Part shown: positions 4,052-35,830 of the stretch, piece by piece
Layout: each line of letters opens with the position of its first letter
Position numbering within the stretch: the stretch's first letter is position 1
Assembly (NCBI GenBank): GCA_038827615.1
Contig: JAWBNK010000001.1
Coordinates: 122,290 to 186,289 of the forward strand
Direction: 5' to 3'
Origin: Thermosphaera sp.
GTDB taxonomy: Archaea; Thermoproteota; Thermoprotei_A; Sulfolobales; Desulfurococcaceae
Length of the DNA stretch: 64,000 nucleotides
Made by a program: the position numbers and the translations under genes
Notes under the pieces: model-generated
Told to the model about the DNA's origin: nothing
The model's input: the letters and a program-made list of their open reading frames with translations, nothing else
Databases searched by the model: none

Positions 4052-4060
4052 GTGTTTTAA

Positions 4061-5119: not shown

Positions 5120-5122
5120 GTT

Positions 5123-6866: not shown

Positions 6867-6871
6867 ATTTT

Positions 6872-7486: not shown

Positions 7487-7643
7487 GGGCCCGTAGCTCA
7501 GCCAGGCAGAGCGGCGGATGCTGGGGTATAGCCCCGGCGGCCGATGCTCCAGATCCATGCTATGGGTCATACGACCTTCACGGGATGAGATAGATCTGGA
7601 GGGAGTGACCCGTAGGTCAGGGGTTCGAATCCCCTCGGGCCCA
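7487..7643 (+). tRNA. Intron-containing tRNA, most likely tRNA-Trp(CCA) with two introns (proposed exons 7487-7517, 7546-7552, 7608-7643)
   Basis: Acceptor GGGCCCG/CGGGCCC, D-arm GCTC-AGCCAGGCA-GAGC, T-arm AGGGG-TTCGAAT-CCCCT, discriminator A. The gene is 157 nt versus 74 nt expected. Removing 7518-7545 and 7553-7607 gives anticodon stem GCGGG/CCCGT and loop CTCCAGA. The exon CTCCAG+ATC pairs with intron GATCTGGAG (9 bp), as in canonical 37/38 introns. Confidence 0.65.
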
Positions 7644-7659
7644 CTACGATGTTTAAAAA

Positions 7660-8085: not shown

Positions 8086-8086
8086 G

Positions 8087-9562
8087 TTAGATAGATAGTT
8101 TTACAAGGTTATTTAACTCGGTCGCGAGTCTTAGGCCTAGACCCTTCTCGTAAACCATTGTTCTCTGGTCGACCGTGTTGAATGGAATGTAAACTATTCC
8201 GGTTGCTTGAGAAGACGCGAATGTGATCTTTCCCCTGTACTTGTTGTTAGCAGCTTCTATGTAGCCGTCGGCGAGCTTCTCGGCTAAAACGCTGGATATT
8301 AGCGGTGGGAAGGCTTTAGCGTCGCCGGGTATGCTCGAGGGTTTCGCCGATCCAGCTATTTCCCTTGCTAGTAAGTATCCGTGAGCCTCAGCTATCTTAT
8401 CGGGCTGGACGGTTTTACCAGAGTATATTCCGAGGACGTCTAAGACGGGGTTTTCAATATAGGGGGGTAATCCCGCGACGAGAAGCGTGAGACGGGACTC
8501 GCTCCCTTTTTTCAACAAGAGTCCTTTCACGAAGGAGAACCTGCACTCCACTGTGAAGAATGGAATATAGAATCCTCCCTTTCCCGGTGCAACGTTGACT
8601 TCAGGGCTACCTGCTCTCGCGCTGGCTAGTTTCTTCAGGTTTAGGCTTGTCTCCACGATGTCTTGGACGGGCCTCTTGTAATTGTCCCTGAGCCATTTGA
8701 AAACACTAGTGTATGCTTCAACCCATTTAATGATCTCTAATGGATCCTTTCCCGCGGCGAAGAACATGTGGGCTGCTTCTGAAATATGGTATACGGCTTC
8801 CGCAACTTGTTTCTCTACTTCGAGGATTCCCCTGTTCACCTCTGGTATTGCCGTGGAACCCGTCTTCTCGAGGAGTAGGTTATACTGGTCTATGCTTGCC
8901 TTAGCGATGTCTACCGCGGCCGAAGTATTCCTATTGTATAGCTGGTCTAAAGCCGTTAGAATTGACTTGACAGCGTTTAGTCTCTGCTTCACTAGTGTGA
9001 AGCCGGGCTCGTCGGGTATTTGAGCAGTAGCCTCCTCGATGTTTTTCAAAGCAGATTTCACATCGTGCTTTGACAGTGCTTTCAAAGCATTGATAAGGTA
9101 GCCGGCCGTGCTCCCGTATACTATGGTCTCGTAAACGAACTTCGAGTCCTCCTCGGATACTGCGAAATCCTTTACTGCCTGCACCCTCAGGGTTTCCTCG
9201 AAGAATTGTTTCGAATCCTCGCTCGGAGGTGTGGGCGGGGGTATGGGTGAAACCGGGTTTGACAAGTACTGTAGGTATTTCGCCCTAATATTCGCCCTAG
9301 TCAGTAATAGCTTCGGTTTTATAATGCTCTGAAAGATCTGGTGTCTAGCGGCTGTGTCGACAACTGTTGATGAAACAGCGGTTGGGGGAAGCAGCTCTCT
9401 TATCCATTTCTCAAGCTCCATCCTGAGCTTCTCTATGTATCTTGTAGCGTCGACGATTTTATTGAGGAAGCCGCAGTACTCGCATCTAACCCAGTCTTCT
9501 CCCGGCTGTGGTTTTGGAAGGGGTGCTCCGCAGTTCGTGCAGCGTAAGGCGGTTGTTTCCAA
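8087..9562 (-). CDS. Zn-ribbon protein with a large uncharacterised C-terminal domain
   Basis: N-terminal CTNCG-x17-CEYCG zinc ribbon; no other motif recognised; operonic with the SPFH gene. Confidence 0.6.
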   Translation of the reverse strand: METTALRCTNCGAPLPKPQPGEDWVRCEYCGFLNKIVDATRYIEKLRMELEKWIRELLPPTAVSSTVVDTAARHQIFQSIIKPKLLLTRANIRAKYLQYLSNPVSPIPPPTPPSEDSKQFFEETLRVQAVKDFAVSEEDSKFVYETIVYGSTAGYLINALKALSKHDVKSALKNIEEATAQIPDEPGFTLVKQRLNAVKSILTALDQLYNRNTSAAVDIAKASIDQYNLLLEKTGSTAIPEVNRGILEVEKQVAEAVYHISEAAHMFFAAGKDPLEIIKWVEAYTSVFKWLRDNYKRPVQDIVETSLNLKKLASARAGSPEVNVAPGKGGFYIPFFTVECRFSFVKGLLLKKGSESRLTLLVAGLPPYIENPVLDVLGIYSGKTVQPDKIAEAHGYLLAREIAGSAKPSSIPGDAKAFPPLISSVLAEKLADGYIEAANNKYRGKITFASSQATGIVYIPFNTVDQRTMVYEKGLGLRLATELNNLVKLSI

Positions 9563-9584
9563 AGATTGACCCCTTCTCTACTTG

Positions 9585-10556
9585 TTACTTACGCCCGACT
9601 TGAATCCTTACCGCTGAGACTCTTACCTCTAGTGCGCTTATCCTAGCGTTGAGCCTCGCTTCTACTTCCTGCAGAGCTTTCATGGCGAGCTCGTAGTACC
9701 TCTTGGCTAGTGCATCGCTCAAGTTGTAAACCATCGTGTAGCATACTCTGCAGACAGCTATCTTACTGTCGGCTATTAGGAAGGATGCTTCTCCACCATA
9801 CTTCTCCCTTATGTAAGCGTTTACGGAGGCGGGCATGTATATGTAGTTTACCTCCTCCCCTTGTATCTCCCTGTGGCAGACCCAGCACTTCGTTGTCTTG
9901 GAGAGCTTGCCGAGTTTGTCGTTGACGAAGCTCCTCACCTCGGGTGGCGCTTGCTGAAGGTATGCTGATGCCTCACTGTAGAGTTCAACCGCTTTCGACG
10001 GGTTGTCGGCTTCTATTTTCAAAGCCCTGATGATTCTCGCGTAGCCTAGTAGTCTGAGCCCGACGGAGTTTAACGGGTCGTGAATGTTCAGCAAGTCTTC
10101 GAGTATGAGTCTCCTGGCTCCTTCGCCGAGCAAGGCGTTACCTACTTGCTCATACTTGGATGCGGTGGCTTCATCCATCTTCCCGGCTTCAGCGACGCTG
10201 AATCTTGGGAGGCTTAATATCATGGAGGCTATTTCGAGATCTCTCGCCAGCTCAGCAGCGGTTGGCTTGGCGGCTGTTCCTATGTCTAGAGGAGTGACCG
10301 GGTCAAGCTTCCTGCACTGCTCGGCTGCTTTCGAGAATGCTTCAGGAGTCTTCTTGACCAATGCGTCGTAGAAAAACGCGTAGAAGAGTACTTCCCCAGC
10401 TCTTCTCGAGACTTCTGAATCGCTGGTTTTCGAAGCTATTTCGTACGCGTTTTGGAAGTGTTTAACAGCTCCTTCAAGGTTTCCCTTGTTTCTATCGCTG
10501 AATGCCTTGTTTAACTCGTCCTCGAACTTCTCCTTATCGCTTTTGAAGAATATCAC
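9585..10556 (-). CDS. Helical-repeat (TPR-like) protein with an internal Zn ribbon and a C-terminal coiled coil
   Basis: All-alpha N-terminal part; CWVCH-x35-CRVCY; C-terminal heptad-like ALQEVEARLNARISALEVRV. Confidence 0.55.
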   Translation of the reverse strand: MIFFKSDKEKFEDELNKAFSDRNKGNLEGAVKHFQNAYEIASKTSDSEVSRRAGEVLFYAFFYDALVKKTPEAFSKAAEQCRKLDPVTPLDIGTAAKPTAAELARDLEIASMILSLPRFSVAEAGKMDEATASKYEQVGNALLGEGARRLILEDLLNIHDPLNSVGLRLLGYARIIRALKIEADNPSKAVELYSEASAYLQQAPPEVRSFVNDKLGKLSKTTKCWVCHREIQGEEVNYIYMPASVNAYIREKYGGEASFLIADSKIAVCRVCYTMVYNLSDALAKRYYELAMKALQEVEARLNARISALEVRVSAVRIQVGRK

Positions 10557-10558
10557 GG

Positions 10559-11569
10559 CTACATCTCCTTCTTATACTTCTCGAGCAGTTCCTTCTTCAT
10601 TTGATCGTATTCCTCCTGGGTTATCAAGCCCTCGTCAAGCATCTTCTTAAGCTCTCTCAGCTTAGCTATCACGGGGCTCTCCTGAGGCTGGGCCGGAGCC
10701 GTAGCTGGTTGCGGCTGCGGAGGTTGCTGTGGCTGCTGGGCTGGCTGCATCGCCTGCTGCATGAGCGTTGGCATTGCTACGAGGGCCCCCATCCATCCAG
10801 CGGCTGGTGATCTGCCAATGGCTCTCATTACCTCAACGGTTTTCACTATCTCGAGTACTTTGTCCTCGTCGCCCTTCTGTATGGCGAGCAGTAGCGGTAG
10901 ACCATACGTTGGGTCTTCCTTCTCCATTCTCTCGAGCTGTGGTAGCGTTATTCCAGCTATTTTAACGTCTATTAGCTCCAGACCTCTCTGAGCGAAGGCT
11001 TCTTGTATCACTCCCGCCTTGAGCCTCGAGGTCACCTGGGTTAGGTTGGTGTAAATATCTATTGCAGTGTACTTGCTGATCTCCTGTATCAGGGTTTCGA
11101 CGAAGTAGTTTCTTATGAAGTCTGCAACGGCTGTCGAGGAGATCTCTCTAACGGCGCCAGCTATTTGTGTTAGAAATAAGACTGGGTCGGAAACCCTGTA
11201 CCAGAACTCGCCGAAGCTCTGTAGCTCTGTCATGTAGAGTGTTCTAGGCCCCAGCTTGACCCTTGTCGAGAGTCCGAACTTCCCTCTGAACTGCTTGAGG
11301 CTTACGAACACTACTCTGGCTTTGAACGGGGTTTCCCCGTAGCCCATTACTAGCCTGAAGGCTCTTGTGAGTAGCGGGAGGTTTTGAGTCGTTAAGACGT
11401 GTCTCCCTGGGGGTAGGACGTCGTAGATTTTGCCGTCTCTCATGAATATTGCTGTCTCATACTCGTGTACTACGAGAACGCTTCCCCATCTAATGTCCTC
11501 GTACGGGTATACCCATAGGATGTCCTCTGGGCCCGGGTTAACCCATTCTATCACGTTTGTCCTGCTCAC
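10559..11569 (-). CDS. SPFH/Band-7 family protein (YdjI / virion-core-protein-like subgroup) with a P/Q-rich linker and a C-terminal SHOCT domain
   Basis: N-terminal IEWVNPGPEDILWVYPYEDIRWGSVLVVHEYETAIFMRDGKIYDVLPPGRHVL matches the YdjI-type SPFH pattern; linker QPAQQPQQPPQPQPATAPAQPQ; SHOCT-like KLRELKKMLDEGLITQEEYDQMKKELL. Confidence 0.75.
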   Translation of the reverse strand: MSRTNVIEWVNPGPEDILWVYPYEDIRWGSVLVVHEYETAIFMRDGKIYDVLPPGRHVLTTQNLPLLTRAFRLVMGYGETPFKARVVFVSLKQFRGKFGLSTRVKLGPRTLYMTELQSFGEFWYRVSDPVLFLTQIAGAVREISSTAVADFIRNYFVETLIQEISKYTAIDIYTNLTQVTSRLKAGVIQEAFAQRGLELIDVKIAGITLPQLERMEKEDPTYGLPLLLAIQKGDEDKVLEIVKTVEVMRAIGRSPAAGWMGALVAMPTLMQQAMQPAQQPQQPPQPQPATAPAQPQESPVIAKLRELKKMLDEGLITQEEYDQMKKELLEKYKKEM

Positions 11570-11575
11570 CCTCTA

Positions 11576-12073
11576 TCACCTCACAATCCCGGAGAGGATC
11601 TTCTCCCTCTCCTCCAGCATTGACTCATAGTCTTTGACCAGCTTCTCGATGCCTGCCAAGTAGTTTTCAACCTCGAGAAGACTGAGGGGTTGGTTTGAAG
11701 TAGCCTTGTTCAAGGCTTCTGCTGTTTCACCCAGCTTCAAATCATGCTCGAGCATCTTGTCGAGCACTTCCTCGCCCACCTTAGCAACGTGGAACAACGG
11801 CCTGTAGCCGTAGGGCGCGTGCCTCGTTCTCTCAGCCAGGGAGTCGAGCTTGTACACGAGCTTCTCCACCCTCTCGGACAGGGGTGTTGAGCCTGAGGAT
11901 GACACGAGGGTTGAGTATAAGACTTTCAAGTCTCCAACGCTCTTCTTCAACTTCTTGTAGAGCTCATCCCTCACGATCCTATCGGTTTCACGGACGAGTT
12001 CCTTCTCCTTATAACCCCTGTAGCCGGGGAAAACCATTAATAGCTTCTCATATAGTCTGAGCTCCTTGCTCAA
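11576..12073 (-). CDS. Coiled-coil protein, first gene of the SPFH/Zn-ribbon operon
   Basis: 165 aa, predicted all-helical and rich in charged residues; no enzymatic motif. Confidence 0.5.
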   Translation of the reverse strand: MSKELRLYEKLLMVFPGYRGYKEKELVRETDRIVRDELYKKLKKSVGDLKVLYSTLVSSSGSTPLSERVEKLVYKLDSLAERTRHAPYGYRPLFHVAKVGEEVLDKMLEHDLKLGETAEALNKATSNQPLSLLEVENYLAGIEKLVKDYESMLEEREKILSGIVR

Positions 12074-12181
12074 AGAAAATCCACCATATAGAAATATATC
12101 CCGCCCCCTTAATATAGTGGGTGACTCCCGGGTAATATGCAGTGTTTAATTATTCTATGCTTGAGGGGAACTGTTTTCCCC

Positions 12182-13153
12182 CTAGGGAGGTCTCGTGGCG
12201 GGCACGCTGTTCTTGGGTGAATCCTCTTTTCCCGCTCCTCCATTAGAGTCTATGCCGTTGCCCGGTACTTCGATGAAAACGTGCCCGAAACCGGTTGCCC
12301 TCCCCACACCTACGCCGAGGGTTATCGTGTATGCGAACAGCTCCCTCAAGTATTCTTTCAAGTCTATGTTCATGTTCTTAGAGTACATATCATAGTAGTG
12401 CTGGTTCAAGTAGAGGTTCACGTAGCCTATGATGGTTGGCTCCGGCCTCCTCTTATAGACAACCCACTTAATCCCAGTTGTCTTGAGCACCGAGTAGGGC
12501 TCGTTGAAGATCCTGTGGAGCATGAGCAAATGCCTCCTGAACCTCTTGTAGGTGAATGCTCCCTTGTGGGTCAGCATCGTGTAGACCGGCACCGCGAAGA
12601 TGTTCATCACGGAGGGAATAAGGGTCTTATGCTTCGTCCTCTTGAAAGGGTCCCTGAGCATGGTGGGCGAGGCAAAGACGATCTTCACCTTCCCCGTCTC
12701 GAAGAGCTTGCTCATCAGCTCGCTCGACTCCATCTGAGGGATGTAGTATTCGACTCCAGTGGTTTCAACGCACACTCTCTGATCCATGTATGTGAAGCAG
12801 TCGTTAACGCCTAGGAGGCTTGACATGGTTTTAACCGGGTCTGAAACATTGCTCGTGAATCCAGCGTAGAAGTAGTATTCGCCGTTTAAAACTACCTGTG
12901 AGAGAGGGCCCTGGCATTTAGCTGTTTTTCGATTAACACATTTCACGTAGCTGTACAGGCAAATGCTCTTCCCGCCCGAGCTGTAGTATAGGGGTGAGAC
13001 GTGTATGTACTTGGGTTCTCCCCCAGCCCTGGGCTCGAAGAACCCCTCGAGCTCTGGGAGCCTCCTGATCAATATAGTCTTGACGAGCTTGCTGGTGAAG
13101 AGAACCCCTTTGAAGCCTTGAACCCTGACGGATGCCTTGAAAGCGTGCAGCAT
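12182..13153 (-). CDS. cas6: Cas6 CRISPR RNA endoribonuclease
   Basis: C-terminal glycine-rich loop TLGVGVGRATGFGHVFIEV typical of Cas6; last gene of the interference operon. Confidence 0.8.
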   Translation of the reverse strand: MLHAFKASVRVQGFKGVLFTSKLVKTILIRRLPELEGFFEPRAGGEPKYIHVSPLYYSSGGKSICLYSYVKCVNRKTAKCQGPLSQVVLNGEYYFYAGFTSNVSDPVKTMSSLLGVNDCFTYMDQRVCVETTGVEYYIPQMESSELMSKLFETGKVKIVFASPTMLRDPFKRTKHKTLIPSVMNIFAVPVYTMLTHKGAFTYKRFRRHLLMLHRIFNEPYSVLKTTGIKWVVYKRRPEPTIIGYVNLYLNQHYYDMYSKNMNIDLKEYLRELFAYTITLGVGVGRATGFGHVFIEVPGNGIDSNGGAGKEDSPKNSVPATRPP

Positions 13154-21670: not shown

Positions 21671-22660
21671 TCACCAGTTGTGGACATATGCCCTGAACAC
21701 AGCCTCGCCTCTCACGGCGGCGGCGAGGTTGAACGCGCTCCTCCTCAGCACTTGCCTGAGGGTTGCCGGGGCCTCGCCCAGCCACTTCGTCTTGGTCTCG
21801 TCGAGGGTTGCGTTGAATGAGGTTATAAGCTTCACCCTGGACTCATAGTCTAGGAGGCCGTTGACTACCCTGGGGATCCAGCCGTGCCTCAGTATTGACA
21901 GGAGGGTCATGTCCGCTGTGAACCTGAACTGCTCTATGTAGTCGAAGACTAGTGTTGGATTCCCTGATCTATCGGCGTGGAGGTATCCTAGGTAGGGGTC
22001 GAGCCCTGCGAGGACGAGGGCTTTCCACGACTCCGAGTAGAGTATTCCGTACAGATAGTTTAGCGACATGTTTACGGGGTCCTGAGCGTCCTGGTCCCTG
22101 CTGTTGAACCCGAGGCTTTTGGGAACTAGCTTCGCATATGAGGACCAGTATGTTCTCGCCGCTTCTGCTTCTATCTCGACTATCTTGGCCTTAGGGTTGT
22201 CGGCGCCCAGGAGTGCTGCATCTATTCTTGAGGCGTGTCTGGCTACTTCTTCTGCAGCGTTTTTAAGCTCTTGGTCTCTCGTGTAAGTGTAGTACCTCTT
22301 GAGTAAGCCGGCTTGATTCAATATCTTGGCTTTCACTATTTCTGCAGCTATGTCGAGGCTTTTCCCCTTTACCGCTGTCTCGTACTGTTTTCTCCTCGTC
22401 TCTACTGTTTTATTGATGTATACTGGGTAGACTCTCCCCGATGGGTATCCCTTGCTGTCGAGGAAGACTAGGTCTATTCCGTGGTCGAGTATTTTTCTAA
22501 CTGTTTTACTCGATATCGAGACTCCTGATGAGGCTATTATGACTTGCTCGACCTCGTGGATTGGTATGTTGTTTTTCTCGCCGTTTTTCTTCTCCACTAC
22601 TATTTGGTTCCTCCTCGTCCTCAATCTAGCGCCGTATTCGGCTACTATTAGCTGCTTCAT
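21671..22660 (-). CDS. cas1: Cas1 integrase
   Basis: MKQLIVAEYGARLRTRRNQIVV N-terminus; conserved LNYLYGILYSE and YLHADRSGNPTLVFDYIEQFR. ATG at 22658-22660 shares 1 nt with the csa1 stop (TGATG). Confidence 0.9.
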   Translation of the reverse strand: MKQLIVAEYGARLRTRRNQIVVEKKNGEKNNIPIHEVEQVIIASSGVSISSKTVRKILDHGIDLVFLDSKGYPSGRVYPVYINKTVETRRKQYETAVKGKSLDIAAEIVKAKILNQAGLLKRYYTYTRDQELKNAAEEVARHASRIDAALLGADNPKAKIVEIEAEAARTYWSSYAKLVPKSLGFNSRDQDAQDPVNMSLNYLYGILYSESWKALVLAGLDPYLGYLHADRSGNPTLVFDYIEQFRFTADMTLLSILRHGWIPRVVNGLLDYESRVKLITSFNATLDETKTKWLGEAPATLRQVLRRSAFNLAAAVRGEAVFRAYVHNW

Positions 22661-23502
22661 CACGTGCACACCGTTGCGAGCGGGCATGACTCGGGGCATT
22701 TCACGTCTCTCGGCGGCTCTCTGTCTTCGAGGAGCATGTCTATTATCTCGTCTCTTTCCTCTATGAACCATCTTCTCAGGTCGTTTGAGATGTATACTGG
22801 TTTGAGCGTTGTTTTTAAACCGCTGGTGTTTGAGACGTATATTAGTATTCCGTAGTCGTGGGGCGTCTCAGTGTACGCTTTTAGCGCGAGGGCGTATCCG
22901 GCGATGGTTAGCTTGTGGAAGTCTCTGGGCTGCCCGTACTTCATGTCGACGATTACGTTTTCAAAGAGTATGTCTACGGAGAGGTTTTGTGAAAGCCCTA
23001 ATGGGGTTCCGTCGACCTTGTACTCGGTCATGGTTGGTGCCTGTGCGGAGCCGTTTACTACTTGCTCGTACTGCGCCTCCCCGAGTGTGGTGAGCAGGGT
23101 AGTCTTGTATGCCTCCTCAACCGTTTTCGCGTGCGCTGGGTCTGGGTTTAAGATCCGCCACTTGTTCTGGAGGATAATATAAGCTGTTGTCGGGGGAATG
23201 TCGTTGGCGAGTGCTCTAGCGGCCTCCCTTAAGGCGAGGCTGACCGCGTCGTGAATAAACCTCCCTGTGAGCAACGGGTCACTCGCCTCTGCTCTCGCGC
23301 CAACTTTCCTCCTCAACCAGACATCTCTTCTCGTCGGGCAATACTTGGAGGCTACTTCGCTGACTCCGAGGCCGAGGTAGGCCCTAGGCTTTAGAGGCGG
23401 CCGATCCCAGCTCCACCCCCTCAGCTCAGCGTCAACCGGGTCATTCCTAGCCCACTCGTAGAGCCTCCTAATGCTCCTCAACACATGCCTCCTCGCTATC
23501 AT
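22660..23502 (-). CDS. csa1: Csa1 (Cas4-like nuclease of type I-A adaptation modules)
   Basis: N-terminal Cys (KYCPTRRD), VIVDMKYG nuclease core, C-terminal CPESCPLATVC cluster; first gene of csa1-cas1-cas2-cas4. Confidence 0.75.
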   Translation of the reverse strand: MIARRHVLRSIRRLYEWARNDPVDAELRGWSWDRPPLKPRAYLGLGVSEVASKYCPTRRDVWLRRKVGARAEASDPLLTGRFIHDAVSLALREAARALANDIPPTTAYIILQNKWRILNPDPAHAKTVEEAYKTTLLTTLGEAQYEQVVNGSAQAPTMTEYKVDGTPLGLSQNLSVDILFENVIVDMKYGQPRDFHKLTIAGYALALKAYTETPHDYGILIYVSNTSGLKTTLKPVYISNDLRRWFIEERDEIIDMLLEDREPPRDVKCPESCPLATVCT

Positions 23503-26661: not shown

Positions 26662-26833
26662 TTAAGGGGTTGGATACTTTTTCATATGAGTATGTATAGT
26701 GTGTTTTGGGTTGATTCGGGTGTTTTTAAGGAGGTAGTGGTGGGGGTTGTTTGGGGGATGATTGTGGTTTTGTTGTTTTGAGAGGTGTATTTTTAACCCT
26801 GCTCTTCCATAGGTTTTTGTGAAGGTGTGTTGT

Positions 26834-28873
26834 ATGGGTAAGGCGTCATCGCAGGCACCTCTTCTCGCGGCGCTCTTAATCCTTGCAGCTCCTCTCCTGT
26901 CCTTCGCCTGGCTTGGAGGGGTTGCTGGAGAGGCTCCGGCGGGCATTAGAGTAGTGTTGGATGACCACTTGTTTGCGACATACACGTTGGAGTCAAACCT
27001 TGTCTACGCCGGCGGCTCCTACCTGACCAGCCTCTTGAACATAACCCATGGATCCTTCATCGAGGGAAACATATACTTCGTGAGGATCAATGCTTCGACG
27101 GGGGAGCAGTCCAGGATCGTGTTAACCGACAACCTCGGGATAGACCACTTCACCCTCCCAGTCGGGGACAAGATAGCCCTGGCATACTCCAGGTTCGTCA
27201 GCACGGCTCAGAGGAGGGATTTGAACCTCACCATAATAGACCCTGCTGGAAACGAGGTGCTAGCCGATATACCGATAGAAGCCACTGCGAACCACGATGA
27301 ATACCCAGTCCTAGCCTACAACCCGAGGACCGGCACGATAGCAGTAGCATACTTCATAAGCCTGGGAACCACTAGAACCATAGCCGTCAAGCTGTTAGAC
27401 GCCTCAACCCTATCCATCACAGCATCATACCAGTTCCCCAACGCCACTCTAGACTACTCGAGGATAAGCTTCAATATCGCCCCGCTCGGAGCCGGCTTCA
27501 TACTGGTCTACCCCAACGAAACCGCAACCCCTGGAGAGGTCGACACGGTCGCAGTATACGTCGACGGAGCGGGAGCTCAGCCGATAACCGTAGACCCCAC
27601 CCCCGGCGCCAACGAAACCTTCGGCGAAGTCATCACAATGAGAGCCCCGAACTACGTTAGAACCGACACCCTATACTCGCCCTTCACCCCCCTGGTAATC
27701 GACGAGAACACAGTAGTCTTCACAGGATTCACATACAACTCCAACGGCACGAGAAGCGTCTTCACCCTCCAAGCAAAAATGGAGAACGGTCAACCAGTCA
27801 TATCCCAAGTCTTCCACGGCCTCGGACACTACCCATCAATAGCCCAGGGCTCCTCAACCATAGCGCTAGCCTACTCAGCCCCAGGCCCCGGCGGCTACGA
27901 CGCAGTGGTGAAAATACTGGACAAGCAAACCCTCCAGGAGATAGCGTGGCTAAACCTCAGCGCGATCGCCGGGACAGCTCCCCTCCCAGAGGGATTCGTT
28001 AAAACAGCCTACAGCCCCTCCGGATACTATCTAGTAGCCTGGAGCGTCCTCGGACCCGACTCAACCTACACTATAGTAGCAGCAGGGGTTAAGGAGTCGC
28101 CTCTCGCCTTCACGGGAACGGCAAGCATACCGACAACAGCCGGATTCAACGCCACGGCCCTGAGGATAGGAGTTGATGATTCGAACGGCTTCGCAATACT
28201 ATACAGAGAGTACAAGATCGCTACGAACGAGTCAGACACCTACCTGTACATGGGTAAGATCGGAGTAGACATACCCCCGATAACCGAGACCACAACAGTC
28301 ACGGAGACAACCACTACCACGCACACAACCACAGTCACCGCTACCGAGACCACTACAGTACCCACGACGACAACATACACTACAACCGAAACAACAACCA
28401 CGACCTACACTACGACTACAACAGCGACCGTGACCACCACGGAGACAACCACCGTGACCGAGACATCCACCACAACTACTACGGCCACCGTCACGGAAAC
28501 CACGACAATCCCGACAACCACCACCGTGACAGTCACCGAGACAACAACTTCAGTCATACCTACAACAACTACCGTGACAGAGACAGCTACTCAAGTAGTC
28601 ACGACAACCCAGACCACAGTCATACCCACGACCACAACGCTCACTCAAACACAAACCTCAACAGTAACCTTCACAATTACTCAGACAGCCACCATAACCA
28701 CAGAGATCCAAACTACGAGAACAATCACTGAGACGGAGACCACGACACAAACCACTACGAAGACGGAAACCCAGACCACGAGCATACTCGAGACGTCGTC
28801 GGGCGTGGCAGCAGCCGCAGCCGCACTACTCGCAGGAGTATTCGTGGGATGGCTCCTGAGGCGCTCGAGATAG
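26834..28873 (+). CDS. Secreted, C-terminally anchored surface protein with a Thr-rich stalk
   Basis: Signal-peptide-like MGKASSQAPLLAALLILAAPLLSFA; many N-x-S/T sequons; about 180-aa Thr/Glu/Val low-complexity region; C-terminal TM AAAALLAGVFVGWLL followed by RRSR. Confidence 0.7.
   Translation: MGKASSQAPLLAALLILAAPLLSFAWLGGVAGEAPAGIRVVLDDHLFATYTLESNLVYAGGSYLTSLLNITHGSFIEGNIYFVRINASTGEQSRIVLTDNLGIDHFTLPVGDKIALAYSRFVSTAQRRDLNLTIIDPAGNEVLADIPIEATANHDEYPVLAYNPRTGTIAVAYFISLGTTRTIAVKLLDASTLSITASYQFPNATLDYSRISFNIAPLGAGFILVYPNETATPGEVDTVAVYVDGAGAQPITVDPTPGANETFGEVITMRAPNYVRTDTLYSPFTPLVIDENTVVFTGFTYNSNGTRSVFTLQAKMENGQPVISQVFHGLGHYPSIAQGSSTIALAYSAPGPGGYDAVVKILDKQTLQEIAWLNLSAIAGTAPLPEGFVKTAYSPSGYYLVAWSVLGPDSTYTIVAAGVKESPLAFTGTASIPTTAGFNATALRIGVDDSNGFAILYREYKIATNESDTYLYMGKIGVDIPPITETTTVTETTTTTHTTTVTATETTTVPTTTTYTTTETTTTTYTTTTTATVTTTETTTVTETSTTTTTATVTETTTIPTTTTVTVTETTTSVIPTTTTVTETATQVVTTTQTTVIPTTTTLTQTQTSTVTFTITQTATITTEIQTTRTITETETTTQTTTKTETQTTSILETSSGVAAAAAALLAGVFVGWLLRRSR
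28262..28800 (+). repeat. Low-complexity Thr-codon-rich tract (ACC/ACA/ACG runs) encoding the TTTVTETTT-type stalk
   Basis: Direct reading of sequence and translation. Confidence 0.85.
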
Positions 28874-29248: not shown

Positions 29249-29677
29249 ATGGAACTGGCTCACGAGATCTTGAGGCGGAGGAAGCGCGAAATCAGACGCG
29301 ACGCTATCGCTAGATGTCAGCACACGAATCTGGGAAGGATAGGGGAGCATCTCTCTCCACTCGCTATCTTCCTAAACTACGGAGTCGACTTAAAGGACCT
29401 CAGGTTCATTGGATCACCGATCGACTACGTAGCCTTCAAAGGCTACTCCGGCGGAAAAACAGAAGAGATCATATTCATTGAAGTGAAGAGCGGAAGTTCG
29501 GGGGATCTAGAGGAAAAGCAGAAGCAAGTTAAGGAGGCTGTGGAGTCTTGTAGGATAGAGTGGCTGGCAATACACTTACCAACCGAGATAGAGAATTTGA
29601 AGCGAGCTCCGTCCCAGAGGCAAGAAAACACGGTTCTAAAATACCTGTGCGTCTCCACCAGATGCTTGATTAGCTGA
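29249..29677 (+). CDS. Small PD-(D/E)XK nuclease, Holliday-junction-resolvase-related family
   Basis: Core GSPIDYVAF...EEIIFIEVKSGSS (D...ExK). SD GAGGTGA at 29237-29243 favours the ATG at 29249 (ORF track GTG 29240). Confidence 0.6.
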   Translation: MELAHEILRRRKREIRRDAIARCQHTNLGRIGEHLSPLAIFLNYGVDLKDLRFIGSPIDYVAFKGYSGGKTEEIIFIEVKSGSSGDLEEKQKQVKEAVESCRIEWLAIHLPTEIENLKRAPSQRQENTVLKYLCVSTRCLIS

Positions 29678-29773
29678 CGCGTGCTCCTCAACCAGCACGC
29701 CATGAGCGGTTCGGATAGACCAGCCTCCGGCTGAAGATTTATTAGGGCTTGCTCATAGTGTTACTGGTTTAGA

Positions 29774-29849
29774 GGGCCCGTCGTCTAGCTTGGTTTAGGA
29801 CGCCGCCCTGACACGGCGGAGGTCCGGGGTTCAAGTCCCCGCGGGCCCA
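29774..29849 (+). tRNA. tRNA-Val(GAC)
   Basis: GGGCCCG-TC-GTCT..GGAC-G-CCGCC-CTGACAC-GGCGG-AGGTC-CGGGG-TTCAAGT-CCCCG-CGGGCCC-A folds as a canonical cloverleaf; no intron and no encoded CCA. Confidence 0.92.
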
Positions 29850-30017
29850 TCCTCCACAGTATAAGATAGTTTGAAAATCTCTGGCTTGTGGCATAGAGTT
29901 TAGAAAAAGGACACCTATTTATTGACTTTAGACGTGTCATCAATACATTATCTACGTGAAAGATTTTTACAAATGTCATTCATGCATAATTTACGAAAAC
30001 TCTATGATGGTTTTTTG

Positions 30018-31217
30018 TTATTCTTGCAGGTGTGTTGTGATCTCGTCTATGTAGTTTTTAACGAGCTGGTGGTGGCGGGCTCTCTCGCTGAAGTATTTGA
30101 CCGCCTGGTCGAGCTCACCCCTGTACCTCCGCACGTCCCTCAGCGTGCCGACGGGGACGATCCTTTTCAAATCCCCCTTAACCCTCCTCTCGCGTTCGAG
30201 AACCGCCTTATCCGCCTCGTCCGCGGGGAGGTCGAACAGCAGCTGCCGCAGCGTATAGCCATCCACCGCGGCCTCGTCGAGCCCGTAGAGGCGTGTTCCC
30301 GAGAGCTCCTCCGCGGCCCTGAGCGCGTTCAGCAGTATCGAGCGGGCGGGGGCGGTTAGGAAGCCCAGCCTGCTGTACCCCGTGGTCTTGGCGGCCCTCA
30401 TGCTGGGCATGTCGCTTATCCACCTGTACATTAATCTAAAAGCCTCATAATACATTAGATCGCTGCCAGCCAGGTAGTTGCCGAGCTGGTGCTTCACCAG
30501 GGTGCAGTGCCAGCAGCCATACCTCGCCTTGACCGCGCCCTCCCCGTATAGCTTGAACAGCGGCTTAATATCGATATCCCCGTTCCAGTTCCGCAGGTAG
30601 TTCCACACGTCCTGCTCGCTCCAATCCCTTATCGGGAAGGCTTTAGCCGCGGCCCCGTGGTTCATTAAGTAGTATGAGGAGCATCTGCCAGCGCTCAGGG
30701 GGCAGAACCCCGAGCTAACGCTGCTCAGCCGCCTGGCCCTCGCGGAGGACTCCTCATCCCTGTGGCCCAGCAGTACTACAGAGCCCTCCCGCTCAACTAT
30801 CTTCAAGGCGGGCTTCCTCTTCAACAGGTAAACGCACCACCTGAAGCTGAACGAGGGAGCGGGGTAGCCCCTGATGAACAGCCTCCAGTAGAACGTGTCC
30901 TCGGGCGGGGGCGCTACTATTTTAAACCCCGCGTTCACGCCCAGGGCCCGCAGCCTCTCCACATAGTTTTCCATGAACCTCCTAGTCCACTCCCTCATCG
31001 GCGGGATTTCGCTCAGAGTGTCGCTGTTCACAAGCATTATATTGGCATCGGCCGCGCCCATCCTCTCCCGCAGCCAGTCATATAATAGGAGAGAAACTGT
31101 TGTCGAATCCTTACCGCCAGAGTAGGCGACGAACACCCTCCTAGACCGCCTAAGCACTTCGTCGAAAACCCTGAACGACCCAGCCGCCAACAACACCCTC
31201 AAAACCCACCACTCCAA
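30018..31217 (-). CDS. DndC-like PP-loop ATP pyrophosphatase (PAPS-reductase superfamily)
   Basis: SGGKDS PP-loop; FIRGYPAPSFSFRWC; HRDEESSARA; FPIRDWSEQDVWNYL; RYGCWHCT (DndC-type GCWxCT); TTG start. Confidence 0.75.
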   Translation of the reverse strand: MEWWVLRVLLAAGSFRVFDEVLRRSRRVFVAYSGGKDSTTVSLLLYDWLRERMGAADANIMLVNSDTLSEIPPMREWTRRFMENYVERLRALGVNAGFKIVAPPPEDTFYWRLFIRGYPAPSFSFRWCVYLLKRKPALKIVEREGSVVLLGHRDEESSARARRLSSVSSGFCPLSAGRCSSYYLMNHGAAAKAFPIRDWSEQDVWNYLRNWNGDIDIKPLFKLYGEGAVKARYGCWHCTLVKHQLGNYLAGSDLMYYEAFRLMYRWISDMPSMRAAKTTGYSRLGFLTAPARSILLNALRAAEELSGTRLYGLDEAAVDGYTLRQLLFDLPADEADKAVLERERRVKGDLKRIVPVGTLRDVRRYRGELDQAVKYFSERARHHQLVKNYIDEITTHLQE

Positions 31218-31291
31218 TCAATACCTATGGTTGAAGAGCACCTGCTCTTCAATAAATTCCAGTTTATATATAAAAGCTGAGCATATATAGA
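31218..31291. promoter_or_regulatory. Shared divergent promoter spacer between the DndC-like gene and the nuclease-helicase pair
   Basis: AT-rich with TTTATATATAAAAG and GCATATATAG TATA-like boxes directly upstream of the + strand gene. Confidence 0.45.
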
Positions 31292-33265
31292 TTGAGGGAA
31301 TACGTCTTGCCCCACTCTTATCTCGGCGAACTTATAGACCGTGAATTCAAAAACAAAACTTCTCCCCAAGATTACCAGAAGATTGAGATGGCTAGGGAGG
31401 TTCTTCGTGAGACTCTGACCAAAACAGCTCACGTCCCAGTTGTCACGAGCGTGGCAATAGGCGCGGCCCACTGCTCTTTCAAGGCGAAATTAATTGAGGC
31501 GATAGGAGTTATTAAAGACCAATACGTATTCAAGGATAAAATAATGGGAGAAGGATCAAACCTCCATAAGATATTAGCGATAGCTTCTCTTCTGTACTTC
31601 AACAAAGGTCTTTCGATAACGCAAAGCATTAGAGAGGCAATAAATGATGTGAAACAACATCTAACTTCTAGAAGTGGTTTAAACGAGGAGAGGCTGACTA
31701 ATGATGCAGTAAAATTGTTTGAAACTTTAATAAAAAATCTTCAAATTTTTGAGAAAAACTTAGATGTTAGGGAAGGTCAACTAAAACCGGTAGTTGAGCA
31801 AACACTCATAGATTTCGATGTACATCTTAGGGGAATCCCGGATCTCATCTTGGAAGATAGGAAGGCTCGGAAAGCGGTGGTCGTAGAGTGGAAAACGGGA
31901 GGTAGCGACACTCCTTCAAATTATGAAAGGGCCCAGGTGATTGCCTACGCCATCTTGGAGGCAAGGAGATTGGGATATTCTATTGAGGAACTTGAAAGAG
32001 TAATTATTGGTACCCTAGACGATACGGGGCGTGTTAAAGAATATTCAATTCTACCGGTCATCATTAGGGCTACTACCAAGGGCGAATTGTATCCTCATCC
32101 GGCTTTGGCACCTCAAGATAAGGTTAAGGAGAGATTCGAAGAGTTTAAAAATCTGCTTCGGAAAATCCTTATAGAGGCTGAACATCTCACCGTCCTTTTG
32201 ACTCATCAAAAGAGTTTAACAGGAGTGAACCCAGATGTTCTAAAAATCCCCCTTCCAAATAATCCAGACATTAAAGTCAACATCTTGAGATATACGCCTC
32301 CAATCCTTCCTAGAGGGACACCTAAAACCCAGGATTCTTGGCCCTGCGTAAGCAAGAAGAAAAAACCGATTTGCGAGTATATAGAGCCGTGTAAGTTCTA
32401 CTTTGGCAGGTTTGGGGAGAAAGAGGATTATGAAAGAATTCTATGGGATCTCAGATTCGAGGCCCTGAATTATAGGGAAAAGATGCTCTCAGTATACAGA
32501 GGTCTCCACGATTTCTTTAAATTCTATGTTTTCTTTAAAAACTTTGATGTAGACAAAATAATCGGTGAATTGAGTGATTCGGACGGATCTAAATGTATGG
32601 GAATCATAGTTGATTTGGCCCGACCATACGAGGAGAAAATCTCTTCCAAATATGGGAAAAGACGATTATGCAAAGATATTATCATACTGAGAGACAAACA
32701 AGAGTTATTTAATGGAAGGGTGGATATTGTGGAAAAGATAGAGATAGGTGAAGATGGAGAAATAGTTTATGTGAAGAGAAGGATAGCCAAATATGAAAAA
32801 GATAGTGAGCATGGATTTATGCCCAGAGTTGTGAGAGAAGGATCTCCAATACTGATATCCCTCATGGACTCATGGAGTCCCTTATTAAGCACGAGCATTT
32901 TCGGGAGGGTGGATAATGTAAGGTACATAGGAGACAACATCGAGTATCAGATAGGTTTTCCCAGTAGACTCCTAGAGTTGCAGAAGAATCTTCTCAAGCA
33001 CTATGTTGAGAGAAGCCTCGAAGGCAGATTTTTAATGGCAGAGATTAACGTTGACCTAACCAAAGCCGATCTAGAGACTATAGATGCTCTTCAAAGATCA
33101 TTGAAAAGTAAAAGTAGAGAATTACCGACAGAAGAGGCCAAATTGCATTCTATGGAAGATCGCGTTCTCGAGAAACAAAAGAGAAAGCTACGAAGTGAGT
33201 ATGGAGATATCGATGCTACTTTCGATAGCATTTTAAGAAAAGTATTATCCAGGAAGAAGGGGTGA
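31292..33265 (+). CDS. Cas4/AddB/Dna2-type Fe-S PD-(D/E)XK nuclease domain fused to an uncharacterised C-terminal region
   Basis: GIPDLILED...AVVVEWKTGG...YERAQVIAYAIL (D, ExK, QxxxY); one upstream Cys (AAHCSF) and a downstream CVSKKKKPICEYIEPC (C-x9-C-x5-C); about 290 aa of C-terminal sequence without a recognised motif. Confidence 0.65.
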   Translation: MREYVLPHSYLGELIDREFKNKTSPQDYQKIEMAREVLRETLTKTAHVPVVTSVAIGAAHCSFKAKLIEAIGVIKDQYVFKDKIMGEGSNLHKILAIASLLYFNKGLSITQSIREAINDVKQHLTSRSGLNEERLTNDAVKLFETLIKNLQIFEKNLDVREGQLKPVVEQTLIDFDVHLRGIPDLILEDRKARKAVVVEWKTGGSDTPSNYERAQVIAYAILEARRLGYSIEELERVIIGTLDDTGRVKEYSILPVIIRATTKGELYPHPALAPQDKVKERFEEFKNLLRKILIEAEHLTVLLTHQKSLTGVNPDVLKIPLPNNPDIKVNILRYTPPILPRGTPKTQDSWPCVSKKKKPICEYIEPCKFYFGRFGEKEDYERILWDLRFEALNYREKMLSVYRGLHDFFKFYVFFKNFDVDKIIGELSDSDGSKCMGIIVDLARPYEEKISSKYGKRRLCKDIIILRDKQELFNGRVDIVEKIEIGEDGEIVYVKRRIAKYEKDSEHGFMPRVVREGSPILISLMDSWSPLLSTSIFGRVDNVRYIGDNIEYQIGFPSRLLELQKNLLKHYVERSLEGRFLMAEINVDLTKADLETIDALQRSLKSKSRELPTEEAKLHSMEDRVLEKQKRKLRSEYGDIDATFDSILRKVLSRKKG

Positions 33266-33270
33266 CAGAT

Positions 33271-34842
33271 ATGGTTTTCAACGTGGAAAAGATAGTTGAT
33301 TTCGAGCTAGAACAACCTTTCTCGTCTCCCTCGACGGAAGGGATTGAAAACATATTAGGTTTCATCACCGACAAAATCAAAAGTGATAACATAGGAGTAG
33401 TTCAGGGCCCACCCGGCACTAGAAAAACCTTTTCTATATTTACAAGTATCGAAAAAGTTTTTGATAACCTCGACGAAAACGAATTAATAATCTACGTTGC
33501 ACCCACTAATGCGCTTGTTGCCCAGGGGTTGCAATACGCTGTCAGAGCTTTACGTTGGAAAGGCCTCACCCAGAGAGAGGTGAAAAGCGAGATTCTGAGG
33601 TCGGTAAGGGTTTATGGATCACAATTTGAATTACCGGGAACTTATAAAAAACTCAGAGATAAAGTGGATGCAGAAACGAGGATTGTGCTGACTACACCGT
33701 ATCAGATACCTTCGATTGAGGAGAAGGACTTCTTCCACATAATGGTGGATGAGGCAAGTAGAATGAAATTACATGAAGCCTTCATGGAAATTAGAAGAAA
33801 AATTGTGGAAAAAATATCAAACGGGGAAGGGCTTGAAGGTTCAATGATCGTGGTAGGCGATCCCATGCAAGCGATCGTTCTTCCAGAACACTATAGGGAG
33901 ATTGAAAAACTTAGAAAGGAGAGATTACTCCTCGAAAGCCTTCTTGAGGGGCTTTTAACAATTAGCGGAGTAGATACACGTGAGTTAGAGAGCTCGGATT
34001 TAACTAGGGAAGCTCTTCAACGAATTAGAGGAAAATGGTTCGAGTTCATTGAAGTGACTTTTAGATTGCCACAACCGACGGAGAGACCGATTAGTATGGG
34101 CTTTTACGATGGAAAACTTACGGCAAAATTCTCTTTTGAAGAGAGATTAAAAGAGTTAGAAATATCCCCGGGCAACTCTCCATTAAAATTTGGAGATGAA
34201 ACGCTCGATAAGTTAAGTGAGAGCGTATTTGAGTGCCTGAGCACTCACATTCCCTTACTGGTCATAGAGCCAACTGAGAGTGATTGGATGGATGAAGAGT
34301 ACGGTATTCTTAACGAGCCTCATAGAGCAAAAATAGCAGGGGCTCTCAGCGTGGTACTGAGTTCGTACGGTTTTAGGACCACCGTTGTAACAGCTTACAA
34401 GGACCAGGCTTTTCACATTAAGATGTTCACTGAGGAAAAATACCGAAACTATTTAAACAATATCAAGGAGAGAGTCGACTTCATAAACGTTCACAGGATA
34501 TTGGGCGGAGAAAATCAAGCAATAGTCGCTGTACTGGGGAAGGAGTATGCAACACGGCATGAAGATAGACAAACAGTTTACTTCCAAGAGCCGGAACTCC
34601 TTAACGTTCAGCTAAGCAGGCATAAGGCGTTCTTGGCCATAGTCGGAGATCTAAGGAGGTTGTACAGGAGTGCCACGTCGTTAGATCAACGTGAGCGAAC
34701 AAAGAGGTATAGACCAATAATTGAGACCGCAAGAGAGATTTTAGAATTAACGAACGTTGAAGAGAATGAAATCGAGAGAGCTAAACGCGGTAGGGAAAAA
34801 TACGAAGGAGATGAAGGTCTCTACATAAGATGGAAAATATGA
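33271..34842 (+). CDS. SF1B helicase, Upf1/Dna2-like
   Basis: Walker A GPPGTRKT, Walker B IMVDEASRM, VVGDPMQ (motif III), TAYKDQ, VHRILGGENQAIV (motif V), LNVQLSRHKAFLAIVG (motif VI). SD GGGGTGA overlaps the upstream stop codon (ORF track GTG start at 33262). Confidence 0.8.
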   Translation: MVFNVEKIVDFELEQPFSSPSTEGIENILGFITDKIKSDNIGVVQGPPGTRKTFSIFTSIEKVFDNLDENELIIYVAPTNALVAQGLQYAVRALRWKGLTQREVKSEILRSVRVYGSQFELPGTYKKLRDKVDAETRIVLTTPYQIPSIEEKDFFHIMVDEASRMKLHEAFMEIRRKIVEKISNGEGLEGSMIVVGDPMQAIVLPEHYREIEKLRKERLLLESLLEGLLTISGVDTRELESSDLTREALQRIRGKWFEFIEVTFRLPQPTERPISMGFYDGKLTAKFSFEERLKELEISPGNSPLKFGDETLDKLSESVFECLSTHIPLLVIEPTESDWMDEEYGILNEPHRAKIAGALSVVLSSYGFRTTVVTAYKDQAFHIKMFTEEKYRNYLNNIKERVDFINVHRILGGENQAIVAVLGKEYATRHEDRQTVYFQEPELLNVQLSRHKAFLAIVGDLRRLYRSATSLDQRERTKRYRPIIETAREILELTNVEENEIERAKRGREKYEGDEGLYIRWKI

Positions 34843-35053: not shown

Positions 35054-35830
35054 TCATTGGTCACCAGTTTCCACCATGTAATGTAGTTTGAAGCCCCTAA
35101 TGGTCCTCTCCGCTCTTAATATTCTTACTCTGCCGATCTCTCTGGTATTTGCTACGTGTGTCCCGGTGCACGGGATCGCGTTGACTCCCTCGACCTCGAC
35201 TATCCTGTACTTGCTTGTCTTGGGAAGCCTCTGAATGTTCGGGGCATTGTAGGTCCTGGACGCCAGTTCGCTCGGGCTCACCCAATACCACTTCACCCTC
35301 CTGGCCTCGCGAACGATCCTTGAGGCTTCATCAGCGATCTCCTCGAGGAGCTTGTCGCCCGGCGGCGGGGCCTCGTACTCTATGTAGGCCTCGGGGGGCC
35401 CGTGGTGTGCGTCGAGGGTGTTGACGACTCTCCCATAGGCTTTCGAGACAGCGTAGTCTAGGACGTGTCCCGCGGTGTGGAGCCTCATGACTAAGTGCCT
35501 TGTCTCCCAGTCCAAGAGGAGCTTGACGAGAGATCCCTTGACCGGGGGACTGCCCTGCAAGACCCTCCCGTAGTGCGCGAGGACGCCTTTAACCATCAGC
35601 ACCTTCTCAACCTTGAACGAGAAGCCTTGGTCGATGACGAACCCTGTGTCGCTCGGCTGCCCCCCGCTCCTCGGGTGGAAAATGGATTTATCGGAGACCA
35701 GGTAACACCTCCCGGGCTTGTCGCAGGATGAGTCGAGGAGAGTCGCCGCAGCCTCCCTCAAATAAGGGTCTTCGAGGTACAGTAGCACTGTCTCCCCAAA
35801 CCCCCTCGCCCACTCGTACAGGTCGACCAC
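35054..35830 (-). CDS. alaX: Alanyl-tRNA editing protein AlaX (AlaX-M type)
   Basis: HTAGHVL and CTGTHV zinc-binding motifs of the tRNA-synthetase second additional domain; GTG start at 35830 chosen because upstream ORF-track codons overlap the permease gene. Confidence 0.8.
   Translation of the reverse strand: MVDLYEWARGFGETVLLYLEDPYLREAAATLLDSSCDKPGRCYLVSDKSIFHPRSGGQPSDTGFVIDQGFSFKVEKVLMVKGVLAHYGRVLQGSPPVKGSLVKLLLDWETRHLVMRLHTAGHVLDYAVSKAYGRVVNTLDAHHGPPEAYIEYEAPPPGDKLLEEIADEASRIVREARRVKWYWVSPSELASRTYNAPNIQRLPKTSKYRIVEVEGVNAIPCTGTHVANTREIGRVRILRAERTIRGFKLHYMVETGDQ

Follow-up and report, generated by a model that had tools for sequence, protein, structure and literature searches.

Within a 64,000-nt stretch of the Thermosphaera sp. 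contig JAWBNK010000001.1 (assembly GCA_038827615.1, positions 122,290 to 186,289; hereafter the window, in its full length), we recognize a self-contained, conserved three-gene archaeal module. Its genes code for a DndC-like PP-loop ATP pyrophosphatase (D), an iron-sulfur nuclease of the PD-(D/E)XK fold (N), and a superfamily 1B (SF1B) helicase (H), and the linkage among the three is reciprocal and almost obligate. Evidence for this comes from both ends of the module. A metagenome scan anchored on N gave 80 loci, in all of which open reading frames (ORFs) were called and searched with hidden Markov models (HMMs) of the three families. De-replication of the N ORFs at 90% identity left 53 clusters, 17 of them flanked by 3.5 kb or more on each side. 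In 16 of these 17 the helicase gene is adjacent to N and a full DndC-like gene lies within 5 kb; the remaining locus has the helicase and a shorter PAPS-reductase relative in place of a full D. From the other end, all six members of the D clade that lie on long contigs, which were chosen independently of N and include those of Pyrobaculum neutrophilum, P. ferrireducens, and Thermoplasma acidophilum, adjoin a PD-(D/E)XK protein and an SF1 helicase. Neighbourhood look-ups likewise found the triad adjacent in Zestosphaera, a Thermoplasmatales archaeon, Sulfurisphaera ohwakuensis, two more metagenome-assembled contigs, and T. acidophilum DSM 1728. The grouping of a DndC-like enzyme, an iron-sulfur nuclease, and an SF1B helicase into one module, proposed in a first-pass annotation made from the window sequence, is thus borne out from the N side and from the D side alike, and their co-occurrence outside the source genome, set beforehand as a test of that proposal, is seen widely in other archaea.

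The N and H genes are adjacent in every locus with enough flank, either overlapping or lying from a few to about 80 nt apart, and they are separate genes in every locus. The order of the whole triad is far more fluid, with at least five arrangements (D(-)|N H, D N H, N H D(+), N H D(-), and H N D(-)), and a conserved operon structure therefore cannot account for the linkage. Dozens of unrelated contigs carry the three genes side by side, which puts their clustering far beyond chance. The genes have also evolved together: a mirror-tree comparison over 35 complete triads gave correlations of 0.96 for N-H, 0.84 for D-N, and 0.83 for D-H (Mantel p<=0.001). Homolog searches showed the D family to be large and the N family to be small. 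A scan of a genome collection with the D alignment recovered only four archaeal loci. Owing to the shared RYGCWHCT motif, bacterial DndC loci took up the rest of the output, and these were kept as controls. With its strict reciprocal linkage, the conservation of all its catalytic residues, and its presence in cultured strains, the module is a compact three-gene candidate for study in a domain whose immune systems, according to a recent census, are still poorly characterized, nearly a third of archaeal genomes showing nothing beyond CRISPR (clustered regularly interspaced short palindromic repeats) and restriction-modification (RM) systems (PMC12988326).

The three components

The sequence of D points to membership of the DndC superfamily and to a grouping with DndC rather than with CysH, CysD, or the tRNA thiolases. 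Its Pfam match is to PAPS_reduct (PF01507, 51 bits), and among named models it scores highest against those of DndC, with 115 bits in PADLOC and 103 bits for TIGR03183 (cut-off, 290.4), as against no more than 35 bits for the CysH and CysD models and 12 bits for TtcA; the PADLOC models of SspD and BrxP give 20 and 43 bits. These profile scores and a motif comparison with 45 bacterial DndC sequences speak against an assignment to tRNA thiolation or sulfate assimilation, which the first-pass annotation had recognized as a threat to its own reading. Nevertheless, D and its archaeal relatives form a clade of their own: against the HMM of this clade, the bacterial DndC proteins of 76 control loci score 105-160 bits, whereas most complete clade members score ~440-590. 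The identity between D and bacterial DndC is ~30% over residues ~25-315. The protein comprises a catalytic domain (about residues 25-243) and a conserved C-terminal helical domain (residues 245-399), and its start may lie ~10 codons further downstream, as annotated in a Thermosphaera metagenome-assembled genome (MAG). Invariant across the D family are S33GGKDS38, F125RWC128, and R232YGCWHCT239, and C172 and C179 are conserved at 95%. Shared by the D clade and the 45 bacterial DndC are the PP-loop, C128, the R-x-x-E-S-x-x-R motif (R153, E156, S157, and R160), and the CxxC dyad (C235 and C238); the three cysteines among these are 100% conserved in both sets. The likeness continues into the C-terminal domain, up to about residue 325, through R261, R274, G285, and R292. 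In the same alignment, two further cysteines occupy different positions in the archaeal clade and in bacterial DndC. A cysteine dyad has been called unique to DndC (PMC12839542). The AlphaFold2 (AF2) model of D (mean predicted local distance difference test score [pLDDT], 87.8) shows the PP-loop fold of CysH, CysD, TtuA, LarE, and NcsA, and a structure search with the model found no PDB counterpart of the C-terminal domain.

N matches Pfam PDDEXK_1 and, weakly, Cas4 profiles. Its active site is made up of D184, E199-x-K201 (with E or D at 199), and Q215/Y219 and is bracketed by C61 on one side and by C352, C361, and C367 on the other. Among 24 homologs C61, C361, and C367 are invariant and C352 nearly so, and the C-terminal 290 residues are conserved too. 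This signature is that of the four-cysteine "iron-staple" nucleases of the Cas4/AddB/Dna2 kind. At the sequence level N has no Pfam or NCBIfam match to Dna2 families, and sequence searches of PDB yielded nothing informative for any component or accessory protein, apart from the matches of H to Upf1/NAM7. The AF2 model of N (pLDDT, 81; predicted template modelling score, 0.86) is organized as a helical N-terminal domain with C61, the nuclease core, a stalk (~379-428), a beta-barrel (~437-585), and C-terminal helices. In a Foldseek search, the best PDB matches of this model are the mouse Dna2 structures 5eax and 5eaw (E 6e-6, probability 1.0, 613-626 aligned columns), followed by MGME1, the SETX barrel, AddB, Cas4, and Exo5.

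H is placed in SF1B by its Pfam matches (AAA_11, AAA_12, and DEAD), by the IGHMBP2 family model TIGR00376, and by its PDB sequence matches, and carries a Walker A motif (GPPGTRK55T) and a Walker B motif (DEAS). The TGA stop of N (33263-33265) sits within a Shine-Dalgarno-like GGGGTGA ahead of the ATG of H at 33271, and the GTG start of H at 33262 overlaps the stop; H is accordingly placed to be translationally coupled to the N gene, as far as can be read from the sequence. Since N models as the N-terminal half of Dna2 and H is an SF1B motor, the two together are predicted to be a Dna2-type enzyme split over two genes. The term "split Dna2" had been applied to the pair in the first-pass annotation, and the structural match to mouse Dna2 agrees with it. 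Searched exhaustively with the N profile, a set of 1.84 billion representative proteins yielded only 107 relatives of N, 68 of them at E<=1e-30, and there was no fused nuclease-helicase of Dna2 length among these 107. So rare and patchy a pair is not a core replicative gene, the possibility against which the proposal of a module had initially been set. The pair makes a prokaryotic split Dna2 available for mechanistic and evolutionary study.

Setting, hosts, and variants

The hosts belong to two archaeal phyla and include Thermosphaera, Zestosphaera, Sulfurisphaera, Pyrobaculum, Thermoplasma acidophilum, and a Bathyarchaeota MAG; among them are the cultured strains T. acidophilum DSM 1728, P. 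neutrophilum, P. ferrireducens, and S. ohwakuensis. A census of the flanks, in which 150 ORFs from 27 non-redundant loci were sampled, without an enrichment statistic, found integrases, AAA_5, HNH_2, TnpB, type IIG RM, BrxHI, Csx1, and other defence or mobile genes, plus plainly housekeeping genes. Individual loci adjoin integrase-bearing elements, insertion sequence (IS) elements, MmeI-type or Dam-like methyltransferases, HipA, toxin-antitoxin (TA) genes, or CRISPR. This context fits a horizontally mobile accessory system. As to vehicles, N has no relative in IMG/VR, where there is one weak partial match only, and none among the PLSDB plasmids or the INPHARED phages; viral contigs hold only distant PAPS-reductase relatives (<=33% identical) and no members of the D clade.

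Several variants of the module were seen. In one sub-type, found in Pyrobaculum, the Bathyarchaeota MAG, and some hot-spring contigs, two S-adenosylmethionine (SAM)-methyltransferase-like genes lie between H and D; the P. neutrophilum locus (L175, CP001014.1, 3325-9179) is of this kind, as are L011, L015, L096, L161, and L170. The inserted genes encode proteins of ~180 aa and ~370 aa (Methyltransf_11). In the neighbour census four ORFs match PADLOC "mad2" and four match Methyltransf_11, and presumably the two sets coincide; when the two genes of P. neutrophilum were themselves run against PADLOC, neither gave a match. Thermoplasmatales loci carry an extra gene of ~400 aa, and some of them also have an HNH_2 nuclease gene beside D, which in L004 (15967-16899, minus strand) and in L009 (13958-14734, minus strand; L009/L010) stands directly upstream of it. 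We considered this HNH_2 protein as a reader nuclease for phosphorothioate (PT) marks and do not claim it as such, its best NCBIfam match, to the "phosphorothioated DNA-binding restriction endonuclease," being only 33 bits and covering the HNH motif alone, with the N-terminal 140-190 aa left unassigned. Seven loci have a second, shorter PAPS-reductase-family protein beside or instead of D, whose best match is SspD in PADLOC (63 bits) and an uncharacterized archaeal PRK13795-type family in NCBIfam (93 bits). Additional P-loop proteins are encoded in the Sulfurisphaera locus and two related ones, and a McrB-like AAA_5 gene is present in three loci. Single contigs add further forms. One (L147, Ga0326760_1000742, 884-12742) has two divergent N-H pairs around a single D. 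A distant variant in the Guaymas archaeon B48_G17 (L016, 1097-6719) combines a D-like protein of 33% identity with proteins resembling the nuclease (798 aa, 67 bits) and the helicase (636 aa, 46 bits), which suggests that this type of module reaches beyond the clade analysed here. In a Desulfurococcaceae MAG (L178, 1390-4319), and in that locus alone, D is preceded, at a distance of 4-6 kb, by genes for ThiI, TusA, and a cysteine desulfurase, which could be a sulfur-relay supply or a coincidence.

The copy in the window has a marked asymmetry in GC content. Across 45 window ORFs, the GC content at third codon positions (GC3) has a mean of 0.61 (standard deviation, 0.07); D has the highest value of all, 0.79, and N and H the lowest two, 0.41 and 0.43. 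The GC gap between D and N/H, 0.175, is the largest among the 26 loci compared. A weaker form of the same asymmetry is seen in loci L157, L143, and L002, and the reverse is never strongly seen. In the Thermosphaera MAG the genes stand in an identical order (AlaX-like, H, N, D) and show this asymmetry too; its N and H are 99%, and its D 95%, identical to those of the window. The nearest relatives of all three genes are in the Zestosphaera copy, at 54-63% identity. A recent horizontal swap of a low-GC N-H cassette, which we considered as the source of the asymmetry, is therefore ruled out.

The features of the locus are collected in Table 1. The four ORFs, tRNA-Val, the motifs, the spacer, and the overlap of the N stop with the Shine-Dalgarno-like sequence, all read off the sequence at the outset, proved to be present. 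The spacer between D and N recurs unchanged in the Thermosphaera MAG and is in part conserved in Zestosphaera, as is the palindrome within it, which the first-pass annotation had left unmentioned and which may be an operator for a regulator encoded outside the module. Nonetheless, the shared divergent promoter, presented at first as a sign of co-regulation, is not a conserved feature of the module, as gene order and orientation vary. A scan of the locus for sigma-70 promoters and terminators was disregarded as meaningless for an archaeon.

Table 1. Positions of the module genes and adjoining features in the window
Feature	Position	Strand	Size	Remarks
Gene (i)	29240/29249-29677			PF10107 Endonuc_Holl, endonuclease related to archaeal Holliday junction resolvase (Pfam, E 2e-34)
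tRNA-Val(GAC)	29774-29849			97 bp downstream of gene (i)
D	30018-31217	-	399 aa	DndC-family PP-loop ATP pyrophosphatase, putative [4Fe-4S] sulfurtransferase
Spacer	31218-31291		74 bp	divergent, AT-rich, between D and N; read directly from sequence
Palindrome	31231-31252			TTGAAGAGCA-cc-TGCTCTTCAA; perfect 10-bp arms, in the spacer just upstream of the TATA-like box
TATA/BRE-like element	31263-31276			TTTATATATAAAAG; in the spacer, read from sequence
N	31292-33265	+	657 aa	Dna2-N-terminal-half-like protein; alternative TTG start at 31307
H	33262-34842	+	526 aa from GTG 33262; 523 aa from ATG 33271	SF1B (Upf1/Dna2-type) helicase

On its upstream side the module is preceded by a type I-A cas operon (Csa1, at 22660-23502, Cas1, Csa2, and Cas3') and by a CRISPR array of ~42 repeats (23.8-26.7 kb) that ends 3.3 kb from it, in agreement with the location beside a CRISPR-Cas locus that the first-pass annotation had pointed out. 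Downstream follow a gene for an AlaX-like editing protein and then an ABC transporter. An Rfam scan gave no match for the module except tRNA-Val. A 23-nt imperfect direct repeat (18/23) occurs at 29853-29875, 4 nt past tRNA-Val, and at 35070-35092, inside the 3' end of the AlaX-like gene; the pair brackets exactly D, N, and H, a level of match reached in 4 of 300 shuffles, and may be an old insertion scar. Two further features of the window lie apart from the module. Between the CRISPR array and gene (i), an ORF on the plus strand (26819-28873) encodes a probable surface protein of 684 aa, without a match in Pfam, that has hydrophobic N- and C-terminal stretches and an extremely Thr-rich C-terminal third. 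At 7487-7643, also on the plus strand, a 157-nt tRNA that presumably contains an intron was detected by Rfam (47 bits) but was not among the tRNAs reported by ARAGORN.

What the module might do

Two accounts of phosphorothioation (PMC12839542, PMC10853773) describe the known machines as combinations of a PAPS-reductase-family PP-loop enzyme, an ATPase that tracks along DNA, and a protein associated with nicks, the roles being held by DndC/D/E, SspD/C/B, or BrxP-DUF4007/BrxC. The triad offers the same three functional categories, which suggests that D would most likely write a sulfur mark with the help of N and H. The pair, for its part, has the predicted architecture of a complete, processive Dna2-type enzyme, co-evolution is closer between its two members than between either of them and D, and D is exchangeable for another PAPS-reductase lineage, all of which favours a defence that joins modification to degradation. 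We thus regard as the likeliest reading, with a probability of roughly 55%, that the module couples sulfur marking of DNA to a processive nuclease-helicase acting in defence. D would activate DNA with ATP and insert sulfur, leaving a phosphorothioate-type mark on the DNA of the host. N and H would supply the DNA-tracking ATPase and the strand cutting that are elsewhere provided by DndD/DndE, SspC/SspB, or BrxC/DUF4007. The same 5'-to-3' motor-nuclease would also thread and degrade the single-stranded DNA of unmarked invaders, from which marked or partner-protected host DNA would escape. If this is true, the module would add a fourth type, an archaeal one, to the defence systems based on sulfur modification, phosphorothioation chemistry would extend to the hyperthermophilic Thermoproteota, and a DndC would work without DndD and DndE.

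Several observations weigh against marking coupled to degradation. D falls well short of the curated TIGR03183 cut-off, as do other members of its clade (106 bits in Pyrobaculum and 75 bits in Thermoplasma), and its chemistry could differ, for example, by being a base thiolation or amidation. No cysteine desulfurase is consistently linked to the module loci, and the module has no obvious sequence-specificity subunit. A Dna2-type enzyme requires free single-stranded 5' ends and is not an obvious site-specific nickase for modification. Orphan D-type genes, which would be expected for a plain modification-restriction pair, were not seen. The neighbours of the Zestosphaera locus and of one Desulfurococcaceae locus are housekeeping genes only, and the window and Thermosphaera copies are mostly flanked by such genes too, save for the CRISPR locus in the window. 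Finally, GC3 differs sharply between D and the N-H pair inside the one module of the window.

A different division of labour is conceivable within the same set of parts. Phosphorothioates resist nucleases, and the marks may for this reason serve as stop signals for N. D would then work directly with the split Dna2 motor-nuclease, and a phosphorothioate or a new thio-mark would act as a "stop/self" signal, in the manner of Chi for RecBCD/AddAB. We put this forward tentatively, with the odds clearly against it; were it true, the module would be the closest prokaryotic structural counterpart of eukaryotic Dna2 and a hint that the Dna2 architecture existed in archaeal conflict systems. Considerably less probable than the reading favoured here is a machine for modification only, an analogue of SspB/SspC/SspD without dedicated restriction, in which N would be the nickase, H the DNA-scanning ATPase, and D the sulfurtransferase, the mark serving in oxidative or thermal protection or in epigenetic regulation, or being recognized by nucleases that are variable or encoded elsewhere, for example the HNH_2 protein of the Thermoplasmatales loci. 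Such a machine would accommodate the correspondence of the triad with the three functional categories of every known phosphorothioation writer, the obligate linkage of all three genes with no orphan DndC-like gene seen, and the HNH_2 gene adjoining D in Thermoplasmatales-type loci. Uncoupling of this kind has precedent, in that Dnd modification modules are often separate from restriction modules (PMC10853773). However, N has the full processive iron-sulfur architecture of the Dna2/Cas4/AddB type, barrel included, rather than that of a small nickase; the correlation of 0.96 between N and H, as against 0.84 with D, and the replaceability of D fit two cooperating sub-modules better than a single enzyme; and the kinship of the HNH_2 protein to the PT-dependent restriction family goes no further than the HNH motif noted above.

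The two remaining explanations leave immunity or the three-gene unit itself behind. The N-H pair might belong to a pathway for DNA repair or end processing in thermophilic archaea and resect damaged or stalled DNA, with D as an accessory that, for example, processes damaged ends or matures the Fe-S cluster of N. Dna2, the closest structural relative of N, is indeed an enzyme of replication and repair, some loci lie amid housekeeping genes (IF-2B, HisRS, reverse gyrase, and AlaX-like), and the named hosts are thermophiles or thermoacidophiles, many further contigs looking hot-spring derived to judge by their names. We nevertheless hold this to be improbable, as the N family, with its 107 representatives, is very rare and patchy to the point of occurring in single species only within genera, the gene order is variable, the module is often beside integrases, IS elements, RM, or TA genes, and the nearest relative of D is the DNA-modifying DndC; moreover, we know of no PP-loop enzyme that acts as a repair factor for DNA ends. 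Least credible of all, with hardly any chance of being right, is an island of four genes integrated at tRNA-Val and including gene (i), the composition that the first-pass annotation had in mind. Gene (i) indeed encodes a nuclease of the PD-(D/E)XK fold and lies just upstream of tRNA-Val, and the 23-nt repeat that starts 4 nt past this tRNA does bracket D, N, and H. Yet gene (i) lies outside the bracketed segment and is without a homolog in the 174 related loci; tRNA-Val is absent from the seven other module loci scanned, where the only tRNAs, for Ser and Ala, are more than 2 kb away; there is no integrase near the module in the window; and the Zestosphaera triad occupies a different chromosomal site. 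Gene (i) and tRNA-Val are neighbours of the module only.

Comparison with known systems

Among characterized systems, Dnd provides the closest relative of D, which has the SGGKDS and FRWC motifs, the CxxC dyad, and the C-terminal arginines of DndC. The difference lies in the company kept. In the 76 bacterial control loci, DndC is accompanied by an AAA_23 ABC/SMC ATPase (DndD) in 59, by a DndE-containing FtsK/HerA protein in 45, and by an AAA_21 ATPase in 42, and none of these loci has an N. The partners of D, on the other hand, are invariably a Dna2-like nuclease and an SF1B helicase, and HMMs built from the three bacterial partner families found nothing homologous, whether in the window or in the module loci. 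Families of the DndB/F/G/H or Pbe type were not seen in the annotated neighbourhoods of the module loci examined. Of the claim that the partners of all known systems are lacking throughout the window, the part concerning DndD and DndE therefore stands; no search for partners of Ssp, BREX, and Dpd spanned the full window, and SspB/DUF4007, SspC/BrxC, PglZ, and BrxL are absent from 12 annotated module neighbourhoods. Ssp and BREX type 4 (BrxP) follow the logic of the module in joining a PP-loop enzyme of the PAPS-reductase family to an ATPase that tracks DNA and to a protein that cuts DNA or is associated with nicks, but the ATPase of the module is an SF1B helicase and not one of the ABC or BrxC type. 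Proteins like D are currently annotated only as "DndC" (at the Joint Genome Institute [JGI]) or as "PAPS reductase family," and surveys that define Dnd by the pair of DndC and DndD leave such genes out (PMC6459918), so that counts of Dnd systems miss or mislabel them.

The nuclease and the helicase have likenesses of their own. N shares its nuclease core and four-cysteine iron staple with Cas4, AddB, MGME1, and Exo5. It differs from Cas4 in its score (25.5 bits against a TIGR00372 cut-off of 65), in being three times larger, with a stalk and a barrel, and in lying outside the cas operon, the type I-A locus of the window having its own Csa1 and Cas1. The theme of a nuclease with a helicase is common to Hachiman (HamAB), Mokosh (MkoA), and Druantia (DruK), and weak PADLOC matches to MkoA, HamB, and DruK reflect it; these matches are partial and do not exceed 35 bits, and the systems concerned have no PP-loop or DndC-like enzyme. 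Nhi is alike in theme and is not known to have such an enzyme either. In PADLOC-DB v2.0.0 as a whole, only the DndC model matches well, N and H give partial matches of at most 35 bits (Cas4, DruK, and MkoA), and no system is complete. Neither as a named system nor as a described combination was the triad found in the openly readable full-text literature, which included a reappraisal of Dnd, work on PT in archaea, a phylogenomic study of Cas4, a survey of BREX, the census of archaeal immunity, and a "dark matter" paper, subscription journals being outside this coverage, and the initial impression that the combination has no name was to this extent right.

The resemblance to eukaryotic Dna2 is one of order, both running from an Fe-S PD-(D/E)XK nuclease through a stalk and a beta-barrel to an SF1B motor. 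The module departs from it in being split between barrel and motor, in its patchy spread, and in the linkage of the pair to a DndC-like gene. The set of partners that surrounds this DndC-like enzyme may be unprecedented, although an earlier mention is possible, and by its D component and its division into functional categories the module would take its place with the sulfur-modification-linked systems.

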